Part shown: positions 5,941 to 56,770 of the stretch, one piece after another
Numbering within the stretch: the first letter of the stretch is position 1
Layout of the letters: every line of letters begins with the position of its first letter
NCBI GenBank assembly: GCA_913009335.1
Contig: CAJVXN010000007.1
Location: 1-59,855, forward strand
DNA from: an uncultured bacterium
GTDB lineage: Bacteria; Omnitrophota; Gorgyraeia; Ghiorseimicrobiales; Ghiorseimicrobiaceae
Direction: 5' to 3'
DNA length: 59,855 nt
Program-made: the position numbers and the translations under genes
Notes under the pieces: generated by a model
Database searches by the model: none
What the model was told of the DNA's origin: nothing
What the model saw: the letters and a program-made list of their open reading frames with translations, nothing else

Positions 5941-6933
5941 TTATTTTAGGCTTTTTAGTCTTTTAAAATCTACATCCATGCCGAAAGTTAACCCCATGTC
6001 AGCAACCAGATCTCTTATTTCCGTAAGTGACTTTTTCCCAAAATTACGCAGGTTTAACAAATCGGTCTCACTCATATTAACCAATTCGGCAATACGCTTA
6101 ATATTAGCTTCCCTTAAACAATTCGAGCTTCTCACTGAAAGCTCTACCTCGGTAATAGGTAAGCCTAATTTCTCATATAAAGCCGTATCTTCGGAAGCAA
6201 GAGTCTCTTCTTCCTCTTCTTCTTCCGGTAACTGACCAAAATTAACAAATACGTCTAAATGCCGCTGCAATATGTTGGAAGCATAAAGAAGAGCATCTTT
6301 CGGGCTAATACTTCCGTTAGTCGTAATCTCAAGTATTAATTTATCATAATCAGTTCTCTGCCCAACACGTGTACTCTCAACATGAAAGTTAACATTATTA
6401 ACGGGTGTAAAAACCGAATCAATAAAAAGCACCCCTATTGACTGGCCTTCTTTTTTATTCGTCTCGCTGGTTACATACCCGCGACCACGAGAAACTTCCA
6501 TCTCAACGTTAAAATTTACATTTTGCGTAAGCGTTGCAATAAGGCAGTCAGGATTTATAATCTCGATTGTTTCATCCATTATTATATCCTTAGCTTTAAC
6601 CTCTCCTTTTTTACTAACCTTTATCATTACCTTCTTAGGAGTTTTAGCGTAAGAACGAATAATTAATTGTTTAATATTCAAGATTATATCCGTTACATCC
6701 TCTACTACGCCATCTATAGTTGAAAACTCATGGGATATACCGTCAAATTTAACGGATGTAACCGCACTTCCCTCAATAGAAGACAAGAGCACGCGTCTTA
6801 AAGAGTTTCCCAGAGTAACACCATATCCTCGCTCAAAAGGCTCCGCAATAAATTTACCATAAGTTGCGCTATAAGATGACTCCTCGCATTCTAGTCGTTT
6901 AGGCGTTTGAAAATCTCTCCATTTTATCCCCAT
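5941..6933 (-). CDS. rpoA: RNA polymerase alpha subunit
   Basis: Contains FIAEPFERGYGVTLGNSLRRVLLSS. I chose the ATG at 6931-6933 (MGIKW) behind a GGAG. The ORF-track TTG at 7002 is probably an over-extension. Confidence 0.9.
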   Translation of the reverse strand: MGIKWRDFQTPKRLECEESSYSATYGKFIAEPFERGYGVTLGNSLRRVLLSSIEGSAVTSVKFDGISHEFSTIDGVVEDVTDIILNIKQLIIRSYAKTPKKVMIKVSKKGEVKAKDIIMDETIEIINPDCLIATLTQNVNFNVEMEVSRGRGYVTSETNKKEGQSIGVLFIDSVFTPVNNVNFHVESTRVGQRTDYDKLILEITTNGSISPKDALLYASNILQRHLDVFVNFGQLPEEEEEEETLASEDTALYEKLGLPITEVELSVRSSNCLREANIKRIAELVNMSETDLLNLRNFGKKSLTEIRDLVADMGLTFGMDVDFKRLKSLK

Positions 6934-12181: not shown

Positions 12182-12333
12182 TTATTTTGACTCTCCCTTA
12201 TCCTTTTAATGAAACCACAATTTACGCAACGTTAACGTTCGTAAATTGTATGGTCGAATTAACCCCGCCATCGGCGGGGTAAGTTCGGATAAGTAAGTTA
12301 TGAGCACTATCGCTCCATAACTTACGTCCTCAC
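12182..12333 (-). repeat. A-B-C hairpin cassette (copy 1) filling the rpsE-rplO junction
   Basis: Module A is at 12217-12249 (ACAATTTACG..CGTAAATTGT), B at 12262-12280 (ACCCCGCC-ATC-GGCGGGGT) and C at 12293-12325 (GTAAGTTATGAGC-N6-GCTCCATAACTTAC). Confidence 0.8.
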
Positions 12334-12846
12334 TCATTTTTCTTCAGTCTCTGATTCTAATGCCTTGCTATCTAGCTTTCTAGCTCTCCTGATTTTTACT
12401 TTACTTAAGCCATCCAAAGTAGCCTTTACGGTATTAAGCGGATTATTGGATTTCAAACACTTTGTTAATATATCTTTAATGCCTGCAGATTCACAAACTG
12501 CCCTTACTGATCCGGCGGCAATAACTCCAGTACCTTCACTAGCAGGTTTAAGTAATACTTTTGCTGCTCCAAAATGACCAATAATCTCATGAGGTATGGT
12601 TGTATCAAGCATGCTTATCTTAATCATAGAATTCTTAGCACGGGTTATGCCTTTTTTTATCGCAGATGGAACTTCGTTGGCCTTGCCTAATCCCGCGCCA
12701 ACCTTACCTTTTGTATCTCCCACTACAACCAAAGCTGTAAAACAAACTTTTCTTCCCCCCTTGGTAACCTTGGAGACACGCTTAATGCTTACGATTTTTT
12801 CTTCTAATTCACTAGACTGTTTTCTAAAAGTATTCGGGTTTGCCAT
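12334..12846 (-). CDS. rpsE: ribosomal protein S5
   Basis: Contains [24 protein letters not shown]. Confidence 0.95.
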
Positions 12847-13752: not shown

Positions 13753-13880
13753 TTTAAATGAGCCCGCAACTTAACGATTATTAACATTTTCGTTAAGTTG
13801 TTCAGGCGAATTAATCCCGCTGAGTGTATCAAACTTATTAAACCCTCTTTACGAAGCGGGGAAAAACTTAAACTCCTTAA
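13753..13880 (-). repeat. divergent A(+B) hairpin cassette at the rpsH-rplF junction
   Basis: The A-like hairpin CAACTTAACGA..TCGTTAAGTTG is at 13767-13800, with distal arms TCCCGC...GCGGGG. In mRNA sense it ends GGGCTCATTTAAA directly before the rplF ATG. Confidence 0.6.
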
Positions 13881-16159: not shown

Positions 16160-16204
16160 TTAATGGCTTTGGCTATCGGATGCCAAACCATCGCCCTCTG
16201 GCTT
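16160..16204 (-). repeat. solo copy of the 44-nt repeat, overlapping the rpmC 3' end
   Basis: TTAATGGCTTTGGCTATCGGATGCCAAACCATCGCCCTCTGGCTT matches the units at 16446-16576. Confidence 0.85.
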
Positions 16205-16414
16205 ACTATTTTTTTCGCTTGTAGTTTTATTTTTATTTTGACTAACCAGAGTTTCTATTCTGGCAATATCTCTTTTAAACTTGGAAAATAAATGCGGCTT
16301 ATCCACTCTTCCGGCTTTACGCTGGTAATTCAATTTATGCAATTCCTCTTTAAAAGCGGTCTTCTTCTGAGCCAGTTCATCAGGACTTAAATTGTTAAAA
16401 TCATTTTTCTTCAT
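16160..16414 (-). CDS. rpmC: ribosomal protein L29 with a repeat-derived C-terminal extension
   Basis: The L29 core is LSPDELAQKKTAFKEELHKLNYQ...IARIETL. The last 14 codons (KPEGDGLASDSQSH) and the stop lie in a copy of the 44-nt repeat. Confidence 0.9.
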   Translation of the reverse strand: MKKNDFNNLSPDELAQKKTAFKEELHKLNYQRKAGRVDKPHLFSKFKRDIARIETLVSQNKNKTTSEKNSKPEGDGLASDSQSH

Positions 16415-16445: not shown

Positions 16446-16576
16446 TACTGGCTTTGGCTATCGGTTGCCAAACCATCGCCCTCTGGCTTAATGGCTTTGG
16501 CTATTTGGAAGCCAAACCATCGCCCTCTGGCTTAATGGCTTTGGCTATTTGGAAGCCAAACCATCGCCCTCTGGCT
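16446..16576 (-). repeat. 3 tandem copies of a 43-44-nt repeat between rplP and rpmC
   Basis: Units are at 16446-16488, 16489-16532 and 16533-16576. Plus-strand unit: TAATGGCTTTGGCTATTTGGAAGCCAAACCATCGCCCTCTGGCT. Each can fold as ATGG-TTTGGC...GCCAAA-G-CCAT. Confidence 0.9.
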
Positions 16577-16994
16577 AATATGAGTGTAAGTGTTTAACAA
16601 GCTTAGTACGAACGGGCAATTTAAATGATGCGCGTCTGAAAGCCTCCTTAGCTGCTTCCTCAGGTATGCCGCCTAATTCAAATAAAACCTGACCCCGCCT
16701 AACAACTGCTACCCAATGATCCAAATCCCCTTTACCTTTTCCCATACGGGTTTCAGCAGGTTTTTTAGTTACTGATTTATGGGGAAAAATCCTAATCCAT
16801 AGTTTCCCACCTCGACGCAGCTGCTTGGCGACGACTATACGCACGGCCTCGATATGATTATTCCTAATCCAACCATTCTCTAGCGACTTTAAACCGAACT
16901 CACCGAAGTTAACCTTACTGCCGCGAATACCCAGGCCCCGGCGCTTTCCGCGCTGTAATTTTCTATACTTTACTCTCTTGGGCATTAATACCAT
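16575..16994 (-). CDS. rplP: ribosomal protein L16
   Basis: N-terminus is M(VLM)[16 protein letters not shown]. The stop TAG abuts the first repeat unit. Confidence 0.95.
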
Positions 16995-18027: not shown

Positions 18028-18162
18028 ATTTATGAGACCTCAATTTACGCAACGTTAGCGTTCGTAAATTGTATGGTCGAATTAATCCGCCATTGCTTCA
18101 GTGGCGGATAAGTTCAGACAAGTAAGTTATGAGCGTTATCGCTCCATAACTTACGTCCTCAC
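18028..18162 (-). repeat. A-B-C hairpin cassette (copy) at the rpsS-rplV junction
   Basis: Module A is at 18041-18071, B at 18085-18109 (ATCCGCCA-N9-TGGCGGAT) and C at 18122-18154. Confidence 0.8.
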
Positions 18163-18450
18163 TTATGTTTTATCCACAGCTTTCTTAGCCTTTACTCCGC
18201 CGTGTTTTCTGAATGTCCGCGTTGGCGCAAATTCACCCAACTTATGCCCTACCATATTCTCAGTAATAAATACGGGAATATGATTTTTACCATTATGCAC
18301 TGCAAATGTAAGACCAACGAAATCCGGAATAATAGTTGACCTACGTGACCAAGTCTTAATTGGCTGCCTGGTGCCGGATCTACGTGTCCGCTCAACCTTC
18401 TTTAATAACTTCTCATCTATAAAAGGACCTTTTTTAATTGAACGTGGCAT
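18163..18450 (-). CDS. rpsS: ribosomal protein S19
   Basis: N-terminus is [18 protein letters not shown]. Confidence 0.95.
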
Positions 18451-19567: not shown

Positions 19568-19636
19568 TAGTATCTATTACTGCTAGCTCTTATTCTCTTA
19601 TATATATTCACAAAAGCATATATTATAACTTGTTTT

Positions 19637-20389
19637 TTACTTAATGTCAAGACTAGAAATACGTTTAATTACTTTTTGCAGCGCACTCTTACTAATCAAA
19701 ATTTTACGGTATCTCAGAACATCGTAAGCAGTAATATCCTGCGGCCTAAGAATACTAAAATTAGATATATTACGCATGCAACGCAACATATCGGGTGTCG
19801 CTTCAAATACCCCTAATGTAGGACGCGTCAACTTCCCCTTAACGGATATTTCCGGCAAGCCGGAAAATATCTTTACTGCCTCTTTTGTCTTTATCTCGTC
19901 AAGCTTTATTTCATCAAGTAAAATTAAATTACCTGAATTCAACTTTGCATTAAGACCCGAGCGTAAAGCAACAAGTCTTATTTTTTTAGGGATGGTATAG
20001 GAAAAATCGCGCGGTCTAGGACCAAACGTAACCCCACCGTGTCTCCATAACGGAGACCGCGAAGATCCTGCACGCGCCCGCCCGGTACCTTTTTGCTTAT
20101 AAGGTTTTTTTCCGCCACCGGAAACCTCGCCTTTTGTTTTAGTGGAAGCGCACCCCATACGGATATTTGCCTGATAGCAAATAACTGCCTGATGTAATAC
20201 TTTCTTATTTACTTTTCCGTCAAAAACTTTTTTATCTAAAACAATATTTTCTACGGCTTTTCCGTCACAGCTATAAACGGGTAATTTAAATTCTCCGGCT
20301 ACTGCCTTGTTTATTTTTTTTCCTGCGCGCTTAACAGGAGAAAGACTCTTTGAGTCTGATTTTTCTCTTTTAAGTATTGCTTCTGACAT
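19637..20389 (-). CDS. rplD: ribosomal protein L4 (N-terminal extension of about 35 aa)
   Basis: Contains GGGKKPYKQKGTGRARAGSSRSPLWRHGGVTFGP. At 250 aa it is longer than the usual roughly 200. Confidence 0.9.
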   Translation of the reverse strand: MSEAILKREKSDSKSLSPVKRAGKKINKAVAGEFKLPVYSCDGKAVENIVLDKKVFDGKVNKKVLHQAVICYQANIRMGCASTKTKGEVSGGGKKPYKQKGTGRARAGSSRSPLWRHGGVTFGPRPRDFSYTIPKKIRLVALRSGLNAKLNSGNLILLDEIKLDEIKTKEAVKIFSGLPEISVKGKLTRPTLGVFEATPDMLRCMRNISNFSILRPQDITAYDVLRYRKILISKSALQKVIKRISSLDIK

Positions 20390-21094: not shown

Positions 21095-21232
21095 ATTTTA
21101 ATGAGACCGCAATTTGCGAAATTTCAATTTTCGTAAATTGTATGGTCGTTTTAATCCGCCACTGAATCAATGGCGGATAAGTTCGGACACATAGGTTACG
21201 AACGCTTATCGCTCCGTAACTTATATCCTCAC
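21095..21232 (-). repeat. A-B-C hairpin cassette (copy) at the rpsJ-rplC junction
   Basis: Module A is at 21110-21140, B at 21154-21178 and C at about 21190-21224. It begins immediately after the rpsJ stop and ends CTCATTAAAAT before the rplC ATG. Confidence 0.8.
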
Positions 21233-21532
21233 TTATTTAATTTCCGCAGCTACCCCCGAAGGAAGATTTAATTTCCTCAGCGCATCAACGGTTTTTGCCG
21301 TTGGATCCACTAGCTCAAGAAGGCGTCTATGTGTAAATAAACCAAACTGCTCTCTAGCTCTTTTATCAATGACCGGAGACTTAAGAACCGTATATATCTC
21401 TTTCTTTGTCGGAAGAGGAATAGGACCTGAAACACGAGCCCCTGTTCTTTTGGCTGTCTCTACAATCTCCAGGATCGATTGATCCAGAAGCCTATGGTCA
21501 TAAGCTTTTAACTTAATACGTATCGTCTGCAT
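21233..21532 (-). CDS. rpsJ: ribosomal protein S10
   Basis: N-terminus is [19 protein letters not shown]. Confidence 0.95.
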
Positions 21533-21627
21533 TTTAATGAGACCGCAATTTACGCAACGTTAACGTTGCGTAAATTGTATGGTCGAATTAACCCCGCCAA
21601 AGGCGAGGTAAGTTCCTATCTAACAAA
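21533..21627 (-). repeat. A-B hairpin cassette (copy) at the tuf-rpsJ junction
   Basis: Module A is a perfect 14-bp stem, CAATTTACGCAACG-TTAA-CGTTGCGTAAATTG, at 21546-21577. Module B is at 21591-21609. Confidence 0.8.
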
Positions 21628-22830
21628 TTAAGCGATTACCTCAGACACTACACCTGCACCTACCGTATGTCCGCCTTCACGAATTGCAAAGCGTGATTCC
21701 TTTTCCATAGCAATAGGTATAATTAATTCAACCTCTAAAACCACATTGTCTCCGGGCATGACCATCTCAGTGCCCTCAGGTAATTTTACATTCCCTGTAA
21801 CATCAGTAGTTCTGAAGTAAAACTGCGGCCTGTATCCGGTAAAGAAAGGAGTATGTCTTCCACCCTCTTCTTTACTTAAGATGTAAACCTGGGCTTTAAA
21901 TTTGGTATGAGGCGTAATTGATCCGCTTGCTGCCATTACCATCCCACGTTCCATGCTTTCCTTTTCAATACCCCTTAAAAGTAAACCTACATTATCACCG
22001 GCCTGCCCCTCATCTAGTAATTTACGGAACATTTCAATTCCAGTAACAACAGTAGTGCTTACTTCTGGACGTAATCCCACAATATCAACTTCCTCATTAA
22101 GCTTCACTTTTCCTCTTTCGATTCTTCCCGTAGCTACCGTGCCACGTCCTTCAATAGAGAAAACGTCTTCTACTGCCATAAGAAACGGCTTATCCATGTC
22201 ACGTTTAGGTAAAGGAATAAAATCATCTATCGCTTTCATAAGATCGCTAATAGGCTTACACTTTGGGCAATCATCTTTTGCGCATCCACACTCCATTGCC
22301 TGAAGCGCGCTGCCTTTAATTATAGGAACATTATCTCCATCAAACTGATATTTTGAAAGAAGCTCTCTTGTTTCCATTTCTACCAAATCAATCAACTCCT
22401 TATCATCTACCTGGTCAACTTTATTTAAGAAAACAACGACTGCCGGAACATTGACCTGACGCGCAAGCAATATATGCTCTCTTGTCTGAGGCATCGGTCC
22501 GTCTGCAGCAGAAACAACCAGAATTCCACCATCCATCTGAGCTGCACCAGTAACCATATTTTTGATATAATCAGCATGACCCGGGCAATCAATATGAGCA
22601 TAATGCCTATTTTCCGTCTGATACTCTACATGCGCAATATTAATCGTCACTCCTCTTTCTTTTTCTTCCGGAGCATTATCAATAGAATCATAACTTCTTG
22701 TTTCTGCAAACCCTTTTTTACTTAATAACATAGTTATCGCGGAAGTTAAAGTTGTCTTACCGTGATCAACGTGTCCTATTGTTCCAATATTGACATGCGG
22801 CTTACTTCTTACGAATTTTTCTTTAGCCAT
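21628..22830 (-). CDS. tuf: elongation factor Tu
   Basis: From the ATG at 22828-22830 behind a GGAGG the protein reads [27 protein letters not shown]. Confidence 0.95.
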
Positions 22831-22853
22831 ATTTACCTCCTTGCTTTCTCTTA

Positions 22854-22884
22854 TTGGCAGCATGTTTTAAAAACATGCTGCCAA
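22854..22884 (-). other. perfect 15-bp inverted repeat in the fusA-tuf spacer
   Basis: TTGGCAGCATGTTTT-A-AAAACATGCTGCCAA. Confidence 0.7.
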
Positions 22885-22900
22885 CAAACTGTCATTATTA

Positions 22901-46933: not shown

Positions 46934-46991
46934 AATTATTCTCCTTTTTTATAAATATTCTTTATACTACTATTCAATATCTCGCTTACGC

Positions 46992-47076
46992 ATCCGCCCC
47001 TGATTCAATGGCGTATAAACCTCGGGATAAATTCGAACAGATAAATTATGAGCGTTACCAATCATAACTTAAGTCT
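46992..47076 (-). repeat. B-C hairpin cassette (copy lacking module A) downstream of rpsP
   Basis: ATCCGCCCCTGATTCAATGGCGTAT is B-like. AAATTATGAGCGTTACCAATCATAACTT is C-like. Confidence 0.65.
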
Positions 47077-47319
47077 TTATTTATACTTTTTGTACAAGCT
47101 TTTTACCGTAGCGCTCATGCGCGCGCCCTTAGATATCCAATAGTCAATACGCTCTTTTTTAAGAGATACGACTTTAGGTTTACGCGCAGGGTCATAATAA
47201 CCCACCTCTTCAATAAAGCTGGAATCCCTGCTCTTAGTAGAATCCATAACCTTAATCCTGAAAAAATATCTTTTCTTTGTTGCCTTGCTTGGTCTTCCCA
47301 ATCTTATCACTACTGCCAT
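47077..47319 (-). CDS. rpsP: ribosomal protein S16
   Basis: N-terminus is MAVVIRLGRPSKATKKRYFFRI, and GYYDP is present. Confidence 0.95.
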   Translation of the reverse strand: MAVVIRLGRPSKATKKRYFFRIKVMDSTKSRDSSFIEEVGYYDPARKPKVVSLKKERIDYWISKGARMSATVKSLYKKYK

Positions 47320-47373: not shown

Positions 47374-48924
47374 CTACCTATCAATTATATAACTTTCATA
47401 AGACCTAATCGCTTCCACCTGAGCCTTTGCCTTATTTACCGTCTCATAATATTCTTTTTCTGGATCCGAATCAGCTACAATACCAGCTCCAGCCTGAATA
47501 TAAGCGATCTTGTTCTTAATTACAATTGTCCTGATTGTAATACATGTATCTAAATTGCCGGAAAAACTAAAATAGCCTACGCATCCGGCATAGGGCCCGC
47601 GAGATAGACCCTCTAATTCGTCAATTATTTCCATCGCTCTTACTTTTGGCGCACCTGAAACTGTGCCTGCGGGAAAAGTTGAGGCCACTACATCAAAAAC
47701 ATTTTTTCTCTTGCTTAAATCACCCTTTACATTGCTAACGATGTGCATAACATGTGAGTATTTTTCAACATGTTTAAATTCATTTACCTTAACACTGCCA
47801 TAGTCACAAACCCTGCCTAAATCATTCCTGCCTAAATCAACAAGCATTAAGTGTTCGGCATTCTCTTTTTTATCTTTTAATAAATTAGCTGCCAAACTAG
47901 CATCCTCTTTTTTGTCTTTTCCCCTTCTGCGAGTTCCGGCTATAGGGCGCATTTGCACCAATCCATCTTCACACCTTACAAACATTTCCGGAGAAGACCC
48001 GACTAAGGACAAATCCTTAAAATTTAAATAAAACATATACGGTGAAGGATTAATAGAGCGAAGGCTACGGTAGATACCAAACGAACCATACTTAATAGGA
48101 TAATAAAACCGTTGGGACAAAACCACCTGTATTATATCGCCTTTTTTAATATATTCTTTCGCGCGGCGCACCATATCTTTAAACTTTTTCTTACTTATGT
48201 TAGATTTAATCCCAGAAAAAGAAGTTGAATGTTTTCCCCTCTTAGCCAATATTTTCGAAGAGGGTAAATTTCTCCTCAATTTAACCTCTACCTTCTCAAT
48301 TTTTCCAATAGCCTCACTATATATTCGTTTAAGCAATGCTTTATTTATTTTTTGCTTTTGTGTTATATGCGTATTTACTACAATCTTTACATTGTGCCTG
48401 CGATGATCAAAAATAATAAGATTCTCTGCTAGAATAAAATAACTATCCGCTAATTTTAAATCATCTTTTATTTTATCCTCTGCTAATTTAGGTTCGAAAA
48501 ATCTCACCATGCCATAACCAAGATACCCGATAAATCCCCCCGAAAACCGAGGCAGGCCATTTTGCTCTACAAAATGAAGACCTTGCATTATTTTTCTTAA
48601 TTCATCTAATGGACTTTTTGTTGTTAGAAAAGTCCTTACTGTCCTTTTCTTTTTTTTAAAACCGGCCCCTGTCTCATAGCTAGTAACTGTTATTTTATTT
48701 TTTTTACTGCTAAAAACAATTAGAGGCTCACTGCCTAAAAAAGAAAAGCGCGCAATTTTATCCTCACCTTCCACAGACTCAAGAAGATAAGAATAATCCC
48801 CGGTTTTAATTTTTAGATAGGCAGACACAGGCGTATCGGTATCCGCGAAAATCTCTTTATATACCGGGATAATATTACCTTTTTTTGCTAATCTTATAAA
48901 TTCCTTTTCACTGGGATGATACAT
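47374..48924 (-). CDS. trpE: anthranilate synthase component I
   Basis: 516 aa with DTDTPVSAY, LLESVEG, and the chorismate-binding C-terminus GAGIVADSDPEKEY. Confidence 0.85.
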   Translation of the reverse strand: MYHPSEKEFIRLAKKGNIIPVYKEIFADTDTPVSAYLKIKTGDYSYLLESVEGEDKIARFSFLGSEPLIVFSSKKNKITVTSYETGAGFKKKKRTVRTFLTTKSPLDELRKIMQGLHFVEQNGLPRFSGGFIGYLGYGMVRFFEPKLAEDKIKDDLKLADSYFILAENLIIFDHRRHNVKIVVNTHITQKQKINKALLKRIYSEAIGKIEKVEVKLRRNLPSSKILAKRGKHSTSFSGIKSNISKKKFKDMVRRAKEYIKKGDIIQVVLSQRFYYPIKYGSFGIYRSLRSINPSPYMFYLNFKDLSLVGSSPEMFVRCEDGLVQMRPIAGTRRRGKDKKEDASLAANLLKDKKENAEHLMLVDLGRNDLGRVCDYGSVKVNEFKHVEKYSHVMHIVSNVKGDLSKRKNVFDVVASTFPAGTVSGAPKVRAMEIIDELEGLSRGPYAGCVGYFSFSGNLDTCITIRTIVIKNKIAYIQAGAGIVADSDPEKEYYETVNKAKAQVEAIRSYESYIIDR

Positions 48925-49088
48925 AAATGAGCTTATAACTTACAGAGTGCCTTACCGCACGATGTAAGTTATTTATGCGAATTAACCCCGCCCCTTTTTA
49001 CTGCTAGGTGTATCTTCATAGTAGAAAGAGGCGGGGTAAGTTCAGATTTATGACTTACGTCGGCATAAAACCTCCGTAAGCCATGTCT
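48925..49088 (-). repeat. rearranged hairpin cassette (C-like, long B, C-like) at the hisI-trpE junction
   Basis: The hairpin ATAACTTACA..TGTAAGTTAT is at 48935-48972. ACCCCGCC...GGCGGGGT at 48985-49037 carries a 37-nt insert. ATGACTTACG..CGTAAGCCAT is at about 49049-49085. Confidence 0.7.
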
Positions 49089-49436
49089 TCAACTTATTCT
49101 CCTATAAAAACAACTCCTATTGCCGGTATGACAGGCAACTCCCACCTGTCTTACCTGTATCAGTAAAGCATCCATATCGCAATCATAATACATGGATTTT
49201 ACAAACTGGAAATGTCCGGATGTCTCTCCCTTAACCCAAAACTTCTTACGTGAGCGGGACCAAAAACATGTCTTGCTAGTTTTAATAGTCCGCTTAACAG
49301 ACGCCGCATTCATGTATGCGACCATAAGGATATCTTTCTTCTTATAATCCTGAATGATTGTTACAATTAATCCTTTATCATCAAACTTTAAATCCTTGAC
49401 TTTAAATTTTATTTCAAGCTTATTATTATTTTTCAC
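49089..49436 (-). CDS. hisI: phosphoribosyl-AMP cyclohydrolase
   Basis: 115 aa with GETSGHFQ and [12 protein letters not shown]. The GTG start at 49434-49436 is formed by the repeat-element end. Confidence 0.9.
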
Positions 49437-49488
49437 CCCGCTCTTCCTTTCTTCTGCTTATCCCTGCCCTTAGGAAGGGCTGGGTTCA
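49432..49488 (-). mobile_element. short TGAA-flanked inverted-repeat element (49-nt body at 49436-49484)
   Basis: mRNA sense: TGAA|CCCAGCCCTTCCTAAGGGCAGGGATAAGCAGAAGAAAGGAAGAGCGGGG|TGAA. The left TGA is the hisF stop. Confidence 0.6.
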
Positions 49489-50259
49489 TATCCTCACACT
49501 TACTCCTTTTTCCGAAAGATAATTCTTAACGCCGGCAATAGAAAGTTGACGATAATGAAATAAAGATGCCGCCAAAGCCGCGTCCGCGCAGCCCTTAGTT
49601 AATACATCATAAAAATCCGAAACACTTCCTGCGCCCCCTGAGGCAATCACGGGGATCTTAACGGCACCTGATACGGCCTTAGTTAATTCCAAGTCATAAC
49701 CATTCTTCGTACCATCAGCATCCATACTCGTAAGTAAAATCTCCCCTGCTCCCAACTTCTCTGCTTTTTTTATCCATTCAATAGCATCTAACTCTGTAGG
49801 GGTCCTTCCACCGTTTATATAAAGCTCCCAGCCAGGCGGTTTACCTTCCTGGGGTTCTCTTCGTTTAGCGTCAACCGCAATTACAATACACTGACTTCCG
49901 AAACGACGGGAAGTCGCTGATATTAAATCAGGATGCTTTATTGCGGCAGTATTCATAGAAACCTTATCCGCCCCCGCGTTAAGTAAATCCCGGATATCCT
50001 CAGTATTACAAACGCCTCCGCCTACGGTAAATGGCATAAAAATGCTCTCGGCAACTCTTTTAACTACATCTATCATTATTCCGCGCTTATCCGAACTTGC
50101 CGTAATATCTAAAAAAACCAGCTCATCGGCACCTTCACTATCATAATAAATCGCACTTTCGACAGGATCTCCGGCGTCCTTTAATTCTTTAAATTTGACA
50201 CCTTTAACAACGCGTCCGTCTTTTACATCCAAACAAGGGATTATTCTCTTAGTTAACAT
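49486..50259 (-). CDS. hisF: imidazole glycerol phosphate synthase cyclase subunit
   Basis: Begins [20 protein letters not shown] and is 257 aa. Confidence 0.95.
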
Positions 50260-53589: not shown

Positions 53590-56183
53590 AATAGCATACC
53601 CTCAATAATTCTCTCTATTTCTTTTGGATTTTTCAATAATCTCTCCCACTCTTCTTCCGTCTTCTCCCAATCTTTATTCTTCATGCCGCCCTGGATTAAA
53701 TCAGGCCTTCCTCCGCCTTTTAAGCCTAGCTTCTTTATAATCTTTTTTGCATCATACCCGCTGCCTTTAACATCTTTCGATAACCCAAGAATAAACAATC
53801 CATTCCCGGAAAAACTGCTAAAGAGAAAGGTGATAAAAGGACATGGAATCTTACTCTTTAATAAATCTAACGCTTTGCGCATATTCTGCATATCGCAAAC
53901 TTTAATATCAGCGATCAAAAGATTAATACCTTTAACAGCCTTAACTTTTTCAAGAATTGACGGGACATCTCTTTCAAACAACTTTAAATAATGATTAGAC
54001 AGATCTTTTTCTAATTTTTTAATATATTTAAATTTGGCTTCTATTTTCAGCAGGAGCTTATCCCGGGAAACTCCAAACTCATCTGCCAGCTTTGAAATTA
54101 CTATCTCATCTTCCTGGAGTTTTTTTTGGGCGAATTTTCCGGTTATTGCTTCAATCCTTCTAACTCCCGAAGCAATAGAACTTTCCGATACAATCTTAAA
54201 TAAACCAATCTGCTCCGTATTATCTAAATGCAAGCCTCCGCAAAGCTCTTTTGAATAATCACCCACCGATACCATTCTTACCGTATCCTGATACTTCTCG
54301 GAAAAAAACGCAAGGGCACCTTCTTTTTTTGCATCACTTAGCGAGAGTTCGCGCTTTATTACTTTATTGTTTAAATAAATATATTCATTAACTAATTCTT
54401 CCACGCGGTTAATCTCTTGCTCACTCATACGTTTAAAATGCGCGAAGTCAAATCTTAAGTATTCATCAGATACCAAAGAGCCTTGTTGCCTGATATGCTC
54501 ACCCAGTACGCGACGCAGCGCGGATTGCAAAAGATGTGTTGCCGTATGGTTTTTCGTAATATCTAACCGAACATCCTTATCAACTATAGCACGAACTTTA
54601 TCACCCTCTTTAAAATTACCCTTTGCTATTTTTACATAATGGATAATAGCATCGTTTATTTTTTTAGTATCATAAACCGCAGCACTCGCGGCATTAGACT
54701 CTATCCTGCCTCTATCGCCAATCTGACCGCCGGACTCAGCATAAAAAGGTGTTAAATCTAAGATTATCTTTGTTTCGTTTTTGTCCGCGATAACATCCAA
54801 GACTTTCGCATCTATTGCGTCAGTTTCATAACCCACGAATTCCGTCTTAAAATCTATATCCGCGCTTCTTGCCCCTCCAAATACATCAGCTACTATACTG
54901 CTTGCTTCTTTAGATTGAATACGCCTTTCCTGCATCAACTTAGCTACTGCCTGCTGATCAAACTTAATCCCTTTTTCTTTCAACAGCTCCAAAGGATATC
55001 CGTGTGTATCATAAAGCATAAATGCTTCTTGGGGCGAAAGTTTACTTTTGTCTCCTACAATCCGCTCACCTTCAGAAAGTGTCTGGGCAAATCTTTCCTC
55101 CTCAGCCTTAATAACCAAAGAAATATTCTCACGATGAGCTTCCATCTCCGGATAAACCTCTTTCATAACCTTAACAACAATAGGTACAATCTTATACATA
55201 AACGGTTTTTCACATCCTAAGCCCATTGCCTTAAAATAAGCCCGACGGATAAGTTTCCTAATAACATACCCTCTTTCCTCGTTTGAAGGCATAACGCCGT
55301 CCGAGATAGCGAATACTGCGGCACGGACATGATCGGCTATTGCATACAGCTGTCTCTCTATTTTTTTAGCTATAATACTCTGAGAAAGCCCTAAAGCGCT
55401 TTTTATTGATTCTATTATCGGCTCAAATATATCAATCTCAAAATTCGTCTTCTTCCCCTGAAGCACTGCCGCCATACGCTCAAGACCCATACCCGTATCA
55501 ATATTCTTCTGAGGCAAAGGCTCTAATTTATTCGGCCCAATACGGTTAAACTGTGTAAATACTAAATTCCAGACCTCAACAAATCTTCCACAGTCACAAG
55601 CAAGAGAACAATCAGGCTTTTTACAACCTTCGCTCTTACCCCAATCATAAAAAATCTCCGAGCATGGTCCGCAGGGCCCATTTGGCCCGTCAGCTATAGC
55701 ATTAGCCGGCCAGAAATTATCCTTATCACCAAACTTTACGATTTTTTCTTCAGGGATTTTTACTAAATCCCGCCATATTCTATAGGCCTCATCATCATCC
55801 TTGTAGACTGATACCCATAACTTTTCTGATGGCACCTCTAAAACTTCATGTATAAATTCCCAACCCCAAAGAATTGCTTCTTCTTTAAAATAATCCCCAA
55901 AAGAAAAATTGCCTAACATTTCAAAGAACGTATGATGACTGCTTGTCCTGCCTACATTATCAAGATCCCCGGTCCGTAAACACTTTTGACAACTAGCAGC
56001 GCGGCGAAAATCACCCACTTCACCTAAAAACTGTTTCTTAAACTGGCTCATCCCTGCCGAAGTAAATAAAACAGTTAGGTCATCCTGAGGAATGAGGGAA
56101 TCCGAAGATATAACTCTATGCCCTTTTGATTTGAAAAAATCGAGGAAATCACTCCTTAATTTATCAGTCGTCTTAATCTTCAC
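53586..56183 (-). CDS. alaS: alanyl-tRNA synthetase
   Basis: 865 aa containing LRSDFLDFFKSKGH. The GTG start at 56181-56183 is formed by the repeat-element end. Confidence 0.93.
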   Translation of the reverse strand: MKIKTTDKLRSDFLDFFKSKGHRVISSDSLIPQDDLTVLFTSAGMSQFKKQFLGEVGDFRRAASCQKCLRTGDLDNVGRTSSHHTFFEMLGNFSFGDYFKEEAILWGWEFIHEVLEVPSEKLWVSVYKDDDEAYRIWRDLVKIPEEKIVKFGDKDNFWPANAIADGPNGPCGPCSEIFYDWGKSEGCKKPDCSLACDCGRFVEVWNLVFTQFNRIGPNKLEPLPQKNIDTGMGLERMAAVLQGKKTNFEIDIFEPIIESIKSALGLSQSIIAKKIERQLYAIADHVRAAVFAISDGVMPSNEERGYVIRKLIRRAYFKAMGLGCEKPFMYKIVPIVVKVMKEVYPEMEAHRENISLVIKAEEERFAQTLSEGERIVGDKSKLSPQEAFMLYDTHGYPLELLKEKGIKFDQQAVAKLMQERRIQSKEASSIVADVFGGARSADIDFKTEFVGYETDAIDAKVLDVIADKNETKIILDLTPFYAESGGQIGDRGRIESNAASAAVYDTKKINDAIIHYVKIAKGNFKEGDKVRAIVDKDVRLDITKNHTATHLLQSALRRVLGEHIRQQGSLVSDEYLRFDFAHFKRMSEQEINRVEELVNEYIYLNNKVIKRELSLSDAKKEGALAFFSEKYQDTVRMVSVGDYSKELCGGLHLDNTEQIGLFKIVSESSIASGVRRIEAITGKFAQKKLQEDEIVISKLADEFGVSRDKLLLKIEAKFKYIKKLEKDLSNHYLKLFERDVPSILEKVKAVKGINLLIADIKVCDMQNMRKALDLLKSKIPCPFITFLFSSFSGNGLFILGLSKDVKGSGYDAKKIIKKLGLKGGGRPDLIQGGMKNKDWEKTEEEWERLLKNPKEIERIIEGMLL

Positions 56184-56287
56184 CCCGCTCTTCCTTCCTT
56201 CTATCTATCCCTGCCCTTAGGAAGGGCGGGGTTCACCCCGTCCTTCCTTCTCAAGTTTATCCCGTCCTCTAAGAAGGACTGGGTTTA
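56179..56287 (-). mobile_element. tandem dimer of short inverted-repeat elements (bodies at 56236-56283 and 56183-56231)
   Basis: mRNA sense: TAAA|CCCAGTCC...GGACGGGG|TGAA|CCCCGCCC...GAGCGGGG|TGAA. The leftmost TAA is the recX stop. Confidence 0.6.
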
Positions 56288-56770
56288 CAAACTATCTATG
56301 ACATCCGTTACAACATCAGGGCTAAAACCCCGGCGCAGAAGAAATCCTTCTATTCTTTGTTTTTCCTTACAATCAAATTTAGCTGATATTATCTTTTTAA
56401 ATTTACTCCTTACTAAATTTAATATTACATCATATTCTGAATAATTTTTGCTTACCTCGGAAAATACGGAATCTATTATTTTTCCATCAACACCCTTTTG
56501 CCTTAATTCAAACCTAAGTTTTCGAAAACCTAAAGGCTTTTTAATCCTTTGACTTACCCACCTGGCAGCAAAATTAAAATCATCCAGATAGCCGGATTTT
56601 TTCAATGAAATTATTACTTGATCTATTATAAGACTACTAAACTTGTTCTCTTTTAACTTAATAAGTAATTCTTCCTCTGAACGTAATCGGACTTTTAACA
56701 GGCGGGATACATAGCTTATTGCTTTGCGTAATCCTGGCATATCCGGTATACCTTTAGCGCAATCACTCAT
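56285..56770 (-). CDS. recX: RecA regulator RecX
   Basis: 161 aa with three-helix repeats (YLDDFNFAARWV, LRQKGV, LLRRGF). It sits between recA and alaS as in many bacteria. Confidence 0.8.
   Translation of the reverse strand: MSDCAKGIPDMPGLRKAISYVSRLLKVRLRSEEELLIKLKENKFSSLIIDQVIISLKKSGYLDDFNFAARWVSQRIKKPLGFRKLRFELRQKGVDGKIIDSVFSEVSKNYSEYDVILNLVRSKFKKIISAKFDCKEKQRIEGFLLRRGFSPDVVTDVIDSL

Follow-up and report, generated by a model that had tools for sequence, protein, structure and literature searches.

We report that the spacer between rpsE and rplO in a 59.9-kb stretch of DNA from an uncultured member of the Omnitrophota (contig CAJVXN010000007.1; the whole stretch analysed, 59,855 nt, is referred to as the window) is occupied by a non-coding cassette of three hairpins, A, B and C, and that six further gene junctions carry some or all of these modules in order, in every case in mRNA sense: rpsH/rplF, rpsS/rplV, rpsJ/rplC, tuf/rpsJ, rpsP/yajC and hisI/trpE (Table 1). 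The GC content of the window is ~39% and all its long open reading frames (ORFs) are carried by the minus strand. The flanking genes S5/L15, S8/L6, S19/L22, S16/YajC and HisI/TrpE were confirmed by Pfam, and L3, S10 and EF-Tu by homology and by gene order in relatives. Comparison with other genomes leads us to propose, with a probability that we put at roughly 0.7, that the rpsE/rplO spacer is an ORF-less, non-autonomous copy, resembling a MITE (miniature transposable element with inverted repeats), of an Omnitrophota-wide mobile element linked to a minimal GIY-YIG nuclease.

Architecture of the junction cassettes

In the mRNA the rpsE/rplO spacer reads, in order, UGA, GUGAGGAC, hairpin C, GAACUUA, hairpin B (ACCCCGCC-GAUG-GGCGGGGU), UAAUUC, GACC, hairpin A, GGUU, UCAUUAA, a tail and AUG. 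For the spacer with its flanking codons RNAfold predicts three hairpins and a minimum free energy (MFE) of -57.3 kcal/mol, where hairpin C is closed by pairing of UAAGU (stop codon included) with ACUUA, and hairpin A by pairing of UUAAU with AUUAA and of GACC with GGUC. Three local hairpins are predicted across the copies, with MFE values from -27 to -66 kcal/mol, and the plus strand folds about equally well. An earlier note on this DNA had proposed that the two ends of the cassette, GUGAGGAC and GGUCUCAU, pair with each other; this helix is absent from the predicted fold, in which each end pairs locally, and the ends are complementary simply because the element consists of two inverted units and so has a terminal inverted repeat. 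We also considered a split Shine-Dalgarno (SD) sequence, in which GAGGA at the 5' end of the cassette would come close to the ATG by folding, and dropped it: GAGGA belongs to the conserved terminal repeat, and the predicted fold has it base-paired.

To describe the unit we used a covariance model, R1, built from 102 A-type units of other genomes. With filters off, the only R1 hits in the 59.9 kb are six A units, all on the minus strand, and five C units, which match on the plus strand, opposite to A, at 33-53 bits. C is the ~59-nt imperfect palindrome of A inverted, and the cassette consists of an inverted unit, a central stem B and a direct unit. Terminal inverted repeats are present in the sense that one model matches both ends on opposite strands, and 31 such inverted pairs were found at other loci. 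The two types of unit differ consistently in that the A type has the closure TTAAT/ATTAA and the outer end CTCATTAA, and the C type the closure TAAGT/ACTTA and the outer end CTCACTTA. The cassettes in the window are non-coding and ~76-173 nt in size, with seven of them in 60 kb.

Much of what the earlier note described is borne out. All seven junctions carry the hairpin modules, and for the A, C and combined patterns 0 matches are expected by chance (dinucleotide shuffles of the window). The sequence GTGAGGA(C/T)(G/A)TAAG follows the stop codon directly in three copies, as had been stated, and the five copies listed as ending close to an ATG are seen as ..CTCAT followed by 3-6 A/T bases and ATG, without an SD; the rpsE/rplO copy is not among these five, being followed by a tail of 27 nt that contains an SD of its own, GGGAGAG. 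The view of a modular repeated cassette in operon junctions also holds, with the correction that A and C, taken to be distinct modules, are according to R1 one unit in two orientations, and the account included neither the GIY-YIG link nor the phylum-wide distribution described below. The 32-nt consensus given for A is matched exactly at tuf/rpsJ only, the rpsE/rplO copy having a 1-nt deletion. The constant orientation relative to transcription is found in all seven copies and backed by other genomes; all genes of the window are on one strand, and the window alone therefore cannot separate transcription-relative from replication-relative orientation.

Table 1. Repeat-bearing junctions of the window and the cassettes that they contain (bit scores refer to R1)
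Feature	Junction	Position	Strand	Remarks
rpsE/rplO cassette proper	12182-12333	12206..12336	-	C-B-A in mRNA sense; includes rpsE stop TGA 12334-12336
rpsE/rplO unit C		12279..12336	+	59-nt palindromic unit, inverted; closing helix of UAAGU/ACUUA type abutting stop codon; 50.4 bits, E 2e-8
rpsE/rplO stem B		12262..12280	-	ACCCCGCC-GAUG-GGCGGGGU; site of GIY-YIG gene in full-length relatives
rpsE/rplO unit A		12206..12263	-	direct orientation, UUAAU UC GACC .. GGUU UC AUUAA; 67.8 bits, E 3e-12
rpsE/rplO tail		12182..12205	-	cassette to rplO ATG; SD-like GGGAGAG, outside repeat
rpsH/rplF copy	13753-13880	13755..13861	-	long B 13816-13861, A 13755-13815 (51.9 bits), without C; ATG 4 nt past TCATT
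rpsS/rplV copy	18028-18162	18029..18165	-	C 18108-18165, B 18085-18109, A 18029-18086; 57.8 and 53.1 bits
rpsJ/rplC copy	21095-21232	21098..21235	-	C 21177-21235, B 21154-21178, A 21098-21155; 44 and 50.8 bits
tuf/rpsJ copy	21533-21627	21534..21609	-	B 21591-21609, A 21534-21592 (65.6 bits); of C only the C-B linker GGAACUUACC left
rpsP/yajC copy	46934-47076	46992..47083	-	C 47027-47083, B 46992-47014, without A; 34.8 bits; yajC retains its own SD
hisI/trpE copy	48925-49088	48924..49096	-	C 49036-49096, long B 48985-49037, A 48924-48986; 54.7 and 33.3 bits; ATG 1 nt past TCATT

Distribution and placement of the unit in other genomes

When genomes, one for each species, were searched with a pattern comprising the B-A linker and the A unit, at least 116 stretches matched. 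Among the matches listed ~100 are true hairpin units, and nearly all of these belong to Omnitrophota/Omnitrophica, to named Omnitrophota genera or to metagenome-assembled genomes auto-labelled Planctomycetia/Planctomycetales, while the non-Omnitrophota matches fail the hairpin test. Good unit matches (58 and 76 bits) are also present in contigs labelled Polaribacter (L118, 6674-6734) and Neomarinimicrobiota (L032, 569-626), for which horizontal transfer or mis-binning could be the reason. The pattern matched 10 times by chance in 2.9 million viral contigs, and none of these 10 matches was a hit of the model. Rfam, at the gathering threshold and at E values up to 5, returned only two tRNAs and noise and no matching family, and the literature on Omnitrophota repeats, or on GIY-YIG together with MITEs, hairpins or palindromes, yielded no description of the element, the only related paper being one on rRNA insertions in the candidate phyla radiation (CPR; PMC11270868). 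The element family is apparently undescribed.

The main helix of the unit is paired in 97.7% of the cells across 102 copies, and 9 of its 19 pairs change on both sides, one of them being CG in 35, GC in 31, AU in 22 and UA in 8 of the 102 units. The covariation score is 0.343, compared with 0.117 in shuffles, and collapses once the pairing partners are shifted by one to three columns. Few pairs are G·U (~2-3%), and these are equally frequent on both strands (45 vs 37 of ~1,750 pairs), and in terms of folding energy the antisense strand is on average slightly more stable. Judged from these alignments, a palindrome maintained at the level of DNA fits better than a structure constrained in the sense RNA only. 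The unpaired linkers GGRTTAATTC, GAACTTAYCC and TCATTAA are kept across the phylum, which points to recognition by a conserved protein. Searches for promoters and terminators gave no match inside the cassettes and no excess over shuffles.

Placement was assessed for 106 A-type units that had been found without regard to their context. In 30 of them an ATG lies within 12 nt of TCATT without an SD, typically as TCATTAA(A)ATG, and another 29 precede an SD with its start, in many cases as TCATTAAGGAGG. A further 16 meet the tail of a convergently transcribed gene, the stop codon of which overlaps the terminal TTAA, and some adjoin tRNA genes. Units that stand directly against a tRNA gene, at its 5' start or 3' end, were noted in L051 (~5950-6610), L083 (2921-2979) and L109 (4219-4275), and one locus (L018, 6663-6887) has three tandem B-A units with an 82-nt period, similar to an array of BIMEs (interspersed mosaic elements of bacteria). 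In the 31 inverted-pair composites the A-type ends were scored in 20 start, 1 stop and 4 neutral contexts and the C-type ends in 12 stop, 3 start and 6 neutral contexts, all 12 stops being the terminal TAA of the unit itself; nine composites have C at a stop together with A at a start, and the reverse arrangement was seen in none. These counts of end type and codon context replaced a first census based on the longest open frames, which was too noisy (polarity was mis-assigned and ORFs were spurious). Position is strongly non-random relative to gene ends, and the cassette idea therefore survives the test of random placement that had been proposed for it.

The insertion site lies exactly between the stop codon and the ribosome-binding region or ATG of the next gene, in sense orientation, with the stop TAA forming the outer strand of the closing helix of C and the A end reading ..TCATTAA. 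Given this position, the element is very probably co-transcribed with its host operon. The earlier statement that the downstream gene has no room for an SD is true for five starts but does not make them exceptional: about half of the genes in the window are SD-less, many of these share a ..TAAAATG-like context, and the empty junctions of relatives are SD-less as well (TAA-A-ATG). It follows from the latter that insertion keeps the sequence just before the ATG and shifts the upstream stop 95-150 nt away. Translational coupling across the cassette may be a property that limits harm, and is not needed to explain the sequence. The most interesting point of the earlier proposal concerns rplC, rpsJ, rplV and rplF, the translation of which could start either independently, without an SD and next to a stable hairpin, or through some form of re-initiation across the folded insert.

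Empty junctions and the GIY-YIG gene

By its L3 protein the organism belongs to Candidatus Omnitrophota. The nearest relatives with usable contigs were L001 (L3 86% identical) and L002 (L3 70% identical), and junction occupancy varies among the window, L001, L002 and L174. The rpsE/rplO junction, filled in the window, is empty in both L002 and L174 (TAA-A-ATG), and at rpsS/rplV, also filled in the window, the two genes overlap in both; this agrees with the expectation that S10 and spc genes are tightly spaced, and the comparison with relatives that had been suggested thus finds both junctions without a cassette. At rpsH/rplF the window and L002 are filled and L174 is empty, and rpsG/fusA is empty in the window and filled in L002 and L174; in L174 (6067-6127) the 56-nt spacer, TAA to ATG, consists entirely of one solo unit (24.8 bits). 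Unit identity is 91-95% within the window compared with 59-73% to units at the same junctions in L001, L002 or L057. In metagenomes scanned with L22 no sequence exceeded 60% identity, and the unit is absent from these more distant S10/spc operons, which therefore provide no nucleotide-level empty sites for the junctions of the window itself.

A closer comparison comes from L153, where an EF-G-like gene is separated from a DUF933/YchF-C gene by an ORF-bearing element of 386 nt, and the latter gene from purH by a cassette of ~245 nt without an ORF. In L171-L173, the DUF933 proteins of which are 87, 81 and 77% identical to that of L153, the corresponding spacers are 0-5 nt and 17 nt long and contain no unit. 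At the second of these junctions L173 reads AAATAA^TTAATGGAGG.. and L153 AAATAA[GTGAAGCC...GGCCTCA]TTTGAGGAGG..., so that the inserted DNA follows immediately on the stop codon and precedes the SD. Since orthologous junctions in relatives are empty, the cassettes are insertions. From the two diverged empty/filled pairs we could establish neither a duplication of TAA, TA or AAAAT nor insertion into TAA^TTA without any duplication; the junction sequences would be compatible with a target site of the TAA^TTA(A) type.

The link to a nuclease comes from inverted pairs with an interior of ~260 nt. Each of these holds an ORF of 76-80 codons that begins MYYVY.LK..YYG.T..L..R..EH and encodes a GIY-YIG catalytic domain (PF01541, 34-41 bits vs a gathering cut-off of 22.6). 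The alignment of the family shows no variation at residues Y2, Y3, Y16, G18, H30, R54 and E55, and among solved structures the UPF0213 proteins BH0048 and EF2693 and the structure-specific nuclease SLX1 come nearest. The 221 small relatives that a protein search identified are from Omnitrophota, Patescibacteria and Bacteroidetes and from metagenome contigs without assignment. The six independent genes in Omnitrophota (L028, L100, L103, L107, L147 and L153) all lie inside stem B, between inverted units, and all six point from C to A, toward the start of the downstream gene; the stem around them reads CCCAGCACTAATTTT..AAAATTAGTGCTGGG or CCCCACACCCAGCA..TGCTGGGTGTGGGG. The full-length form of the element, in which stem B encloses this UPF0213/Slx1-type gene, is seen in other Omnitrophota genomes and not in the window. 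Relative to transcription the element is polar, in the same sense as the nuclease gene.

The ORF-less cassettes in L153 and L028 have the same B stems as the gene module, CCCAGCAC(T)NATTT, with short loops. Outside Omnitrophota the GIY-YIG gene is always accompanied by this bracketing stem, but not by A/C units. The stem accompanies the gene in all contexts and so belongs to the gene module, and on this basis gene loss from the full element would be the simplest reading of the ORF-less B hairpins. In one 2.99-Mb genome the gene, with a CCCAGCACTTATTT inverted repeat, is found inside both 23S rRNA genes (L158 and L159, positions 1501-1758; Rfam LSU, 2,547 bits). From the flanking sequence we take this to be a helix-45-like position, the classic site of intervening sequences.

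Other repeats are present at some of the same junctions. In L002 (9492-9596, 9897-10000 and 11686-11791) and L174 (9479-9585, 9886-10000 and 11653-11718) a different repeat, which reads AGTAACCAGAAACCAG..CTGGTTACTG..GGTTTCT and then an SD, lies at tuf/rpsJ, rpsJ/rplC and rplW/rplB, and rpsJ/rplC of L001 carries a third kind, GGATTAAGGATTAAGGGTTACGGGTTA... These three junctions are hot spots for several element families. In the window a 44-nt unit occurs three times in tandem at 16467-16598, an array that runs over the 3' end of rplP and takes up the 160-nt gap between rplP and rpmC; a further, weak copy lies at 16182-16225. The "TGAA-flanked" elements of the earlier note (1634-1691, 49426-49491 and 56173-56290) form a second repeat family, of long palindromes, TGAACCCCGCCCTTCC..GGAAGGACGGGGTGAA, each of which ends at or in a GTG/ATG start, with two adjacent copies at 56.2 kb. 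A perfect sigma-70 consensus (TTGACA, 17 nt, TATAAT) is found on the minus strand at 19622-19650, at the end of rplD and facing rplW, inside the S10 operon. Finally, the start of the longest ORF for tuf (411 aa) is probably a miscall: the fusA/tuf spacer (22827-22900) contains a conserved hairpin, UUGGCAGCAUG..CAUGCUGCCAA, followed by an apparent strong SD before the probable true tuf ATG (compared with L001).

Origin and spread of the cassettes

Several features of the rpsE/rplO cassette are those of MITEs. It is a short, non-coding and multi-copy sequence with terminal inverted repeats, and its family shows insertion polymorphism (L153 filled and L171-L173 empty, and the window, L002 and L174 differing from one another). 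A longer relative with the same ends exists and encodes a GIY-YIG nuclease, which is not a known type of transposase and would be a candidate for the mobilising enzyme. Correia/NEMIS of Neisseria and other MITEs (RUP, ERIC/IRU, Nezha) are likewise short (~100-160 bp), non-coding and present in many copies with terminal inverted repeats, are found at A/T-rich sites next to genes, and are co-transcribed as stable hairpins; Correia RNA is cut by RNase III. The present family differs from these in that each terminal repeat is itself a 59-nt palindrome, in having a separate central stem, in being strictly sense in operons, in that no target duplication is shown, and in having as its coding partner a GIY-YIG nuclease and not a DDE transposase.

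Other known systems share some of these properties. The insertions with GIY-YIG ORFs in CPR rRNA genes are reported not to be introns and not to resemble classical homing (Tsurumaki et al. 2024, PMC11270868). Together with 23S rRNA intervening sequences they resemble the element in combining the same small gene with a long inverted repeat in the 23S rRNA gene, as in L158/L159, and in that the insert folds out of its host RNA, whereas the copies in the window lie in mRNA operon junctions, without the gene and with extra A/C units, which were found in Omnitrophota and not outside this phylum. Homing endonuclease genes of the free-standing GIY-YIG kind, such as seg of phage T4, also lie in sense between conserved, co-transcribed genes, without an obvious promoter of their own and with a patchy presence in relatives. 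In contrast to these, the element has conserved structured ends and abundant ORF-less copies, and the one long specific target and the DNA-binding domain of a homing endonuclease are lacking, the protein being a catalytic domain of 76-80 aa found at many unrelated junctions. IS200/IS605 elements and their ORF-less PATE derivatives have subterminal hairpins, no clear target duplication and a strong orientation bias, and the derivatives are short and non-coding. The closing helices of the present unit, which pair flank-proximal with internal bases, are loosely reminiscent of the guide/target pairing in that family; on the other hand the ends here are true inverted copies and not same-strand hairpins, and no HUH Y1 transposase or TnpB was noticed, no systematic search for Y1 having been made.

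On the reading of the cassettes as MITE-like derivatives of a nuclease element, the nuclease, which is probably structure-specific, would make the DNA break that starts the copying, and the ORF-less cassettes, which retain the ends and stem B, would be moved in trans or be spread by gene conversion. Since the modules are self-folding, insertion would add three closed hairpins and leave the A/U-rich context of the start codon intact, which would explain why insertions are tolerated even in S10/spc operons. The long stems in the RNA would be likely substrates for RNase III, as in rRNA intervening sequences.

Several points weigh against this interpretation. A target-site duplication is not evident at the two empty/filled pairs, the flanks of which are too diverged to fix the boundaries. 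No ORF remnant is detectable inside the ORF-less B loops, such that derivation by deletion is read from the shared stems alone, and there is no GIY-YIG gene within the 59.9-kb window, which means that a nuclease acting in trans is assumed. The association with the nuclease is correlative; the protein, at 76-80 aa, is a catalytic domain without a DNA-binding domain, and we know of no transposase chemistry for a GIY-YIG domain of this size. Moreover, strict sense orientation is unusual for a DNA transposon and could be due to selection, to coupling with replication or to a function at the RNA level.

The main rival explanation, which we consider unlikely, is that the A and C units are palindromes similar to the repetitive extragenic palindromes (REPs) and their composites BIME and REPIN, spread by some other enzyme, e.g. 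a RAYT-type tyrosine transposase, or by recombination, and that the GIY-YIG gene and its stem form a separate, selfish module, similar to a homing endonuclease, which settled as a passenger between unit pairs. REP/BIME/REPIN with RAYT, and the pneumococcal BOX elements (boxA-B-C), are extragenic transcribed palindromes in alternating orientation with defined linkers that form modular mosaics and tandem arrays and are homogenised in sequence within a genome. The mosaics with linkers, the tandem B-A arrays (L018), solo units (rpsG/fusA of L174) and many half cassettes recall BIMEs, the gene and stem occur without the units in other phyla and are hence separable from them, and the B loops of ORF-less cassettes show no ORF remnant. 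What speaks for a common element is that all six Omnitrophota genes occupy the same place and orientation between inverted units and that the stem of the gene module is present in the ORF-less cassettes. In addition, the units are longer than those of REP/BIME/BOX (59 nt vs 20-40 nt), start with TTAAT or TAAGT without the tag, GTAG or CGTC, that marks the two large REP superfamilies (families according to PMC3733652), have unpaired linkers conserved across the phylum and are placed precisely from stop to start, and neither RAYT nor another transposase was noticed in ~1.2 Mb of loci, where no systematic search was made.

Still less probable, in our view, is the model of the earlier note, in which the cassette is an RNA device selected by the host that folds the upstream stop next to the downstream start and thereby keeps translational coupling or sets the processing and stability of the polycistronic mRNA. 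It would account for the strictly sense orientation in operons, for the stop within the closing helix of C and the ATG 0-4 nt past that of A across many genomes, and for the essential genes rplC, rpsJ, rplV and rplF beginning right after a cassette without an SD; each hairpin joins its own ends, which would make the folded insert spatially short. Yet the same junctions do without a cassette in relatives, units are also found at convergent gene tails, at tRNA genes, in tandem arrays and before ordinary SDs, and the predicted fold lacks the end-to-end helix. Furthermore, SD-less starts are common in this genome anyway, and stems that are nearly pure Watson-Crick, without a G·U strand bias, fit a DNA palindrome better than an RNA-only constraint. 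That the cassettes are autoregulatory leaders with mimics of the binding sites of L4, S8 and similar ribosomal proteins would be suggested only by their location inside the S10 and spc operons, and is effectively refuted by the identity across loci: protein-specific leaders would lack such identity, and here one sequence recurs at unrelated genes, including hisI/trpE, rpsP/yajC and non-ribosomal operons of ~100 genomes, has no Rfam match even at E up to 5, and is absent from the orthologous junctions of relatives.

Going beyond the MITE-like origin of the rpsE/rplO cassette, it is possible, although we hold it to be somewhat doubtful, that the family represents an undescribed class of prokaryotic mobile element, the sole protein of which is a structure-specific GIY-YIG nuclease of 76-80 aa. 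Such an element would target the stop-to-start junctions of transcribed operons (TAA^TTA(A)-like), and the tips of rRNA helices in other phyla, would insert in sense only and would offset the effect of its insertion by folding out of the transcript in the form of closed hairpins, as an "intron without splicing", and its ORF-less cassettes would still be spreading, including in S10/spc operons. If the nuclease does mobilise it, transposition-like spread would have a new enzymatic route, and the element would be, to our knowledge, the smallest self-contained nuclease element.

The findings show that inserts of ~95-150 nt directly before essential genes are tolerated in ribosomal-protein operons, which in bacteria rank with the most tightly packed and most conserved gene arrays, and they tie a phylum-wide hairpin repeat to a minimal GIY-YIG nuclease and to the unexplained GIY-YIG inserts in the rRNA genes of uncultured bacteria. 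For work on Omnitrophota genomes the unit is a diagnostic marker of contigs and a likely cause of assembly breaks and of miscalled start codons. Lastly, the precise placement from stop to start provides a natural experiment on SD-independent initiation, or on re-initiation, beside a very stable RNA structure.

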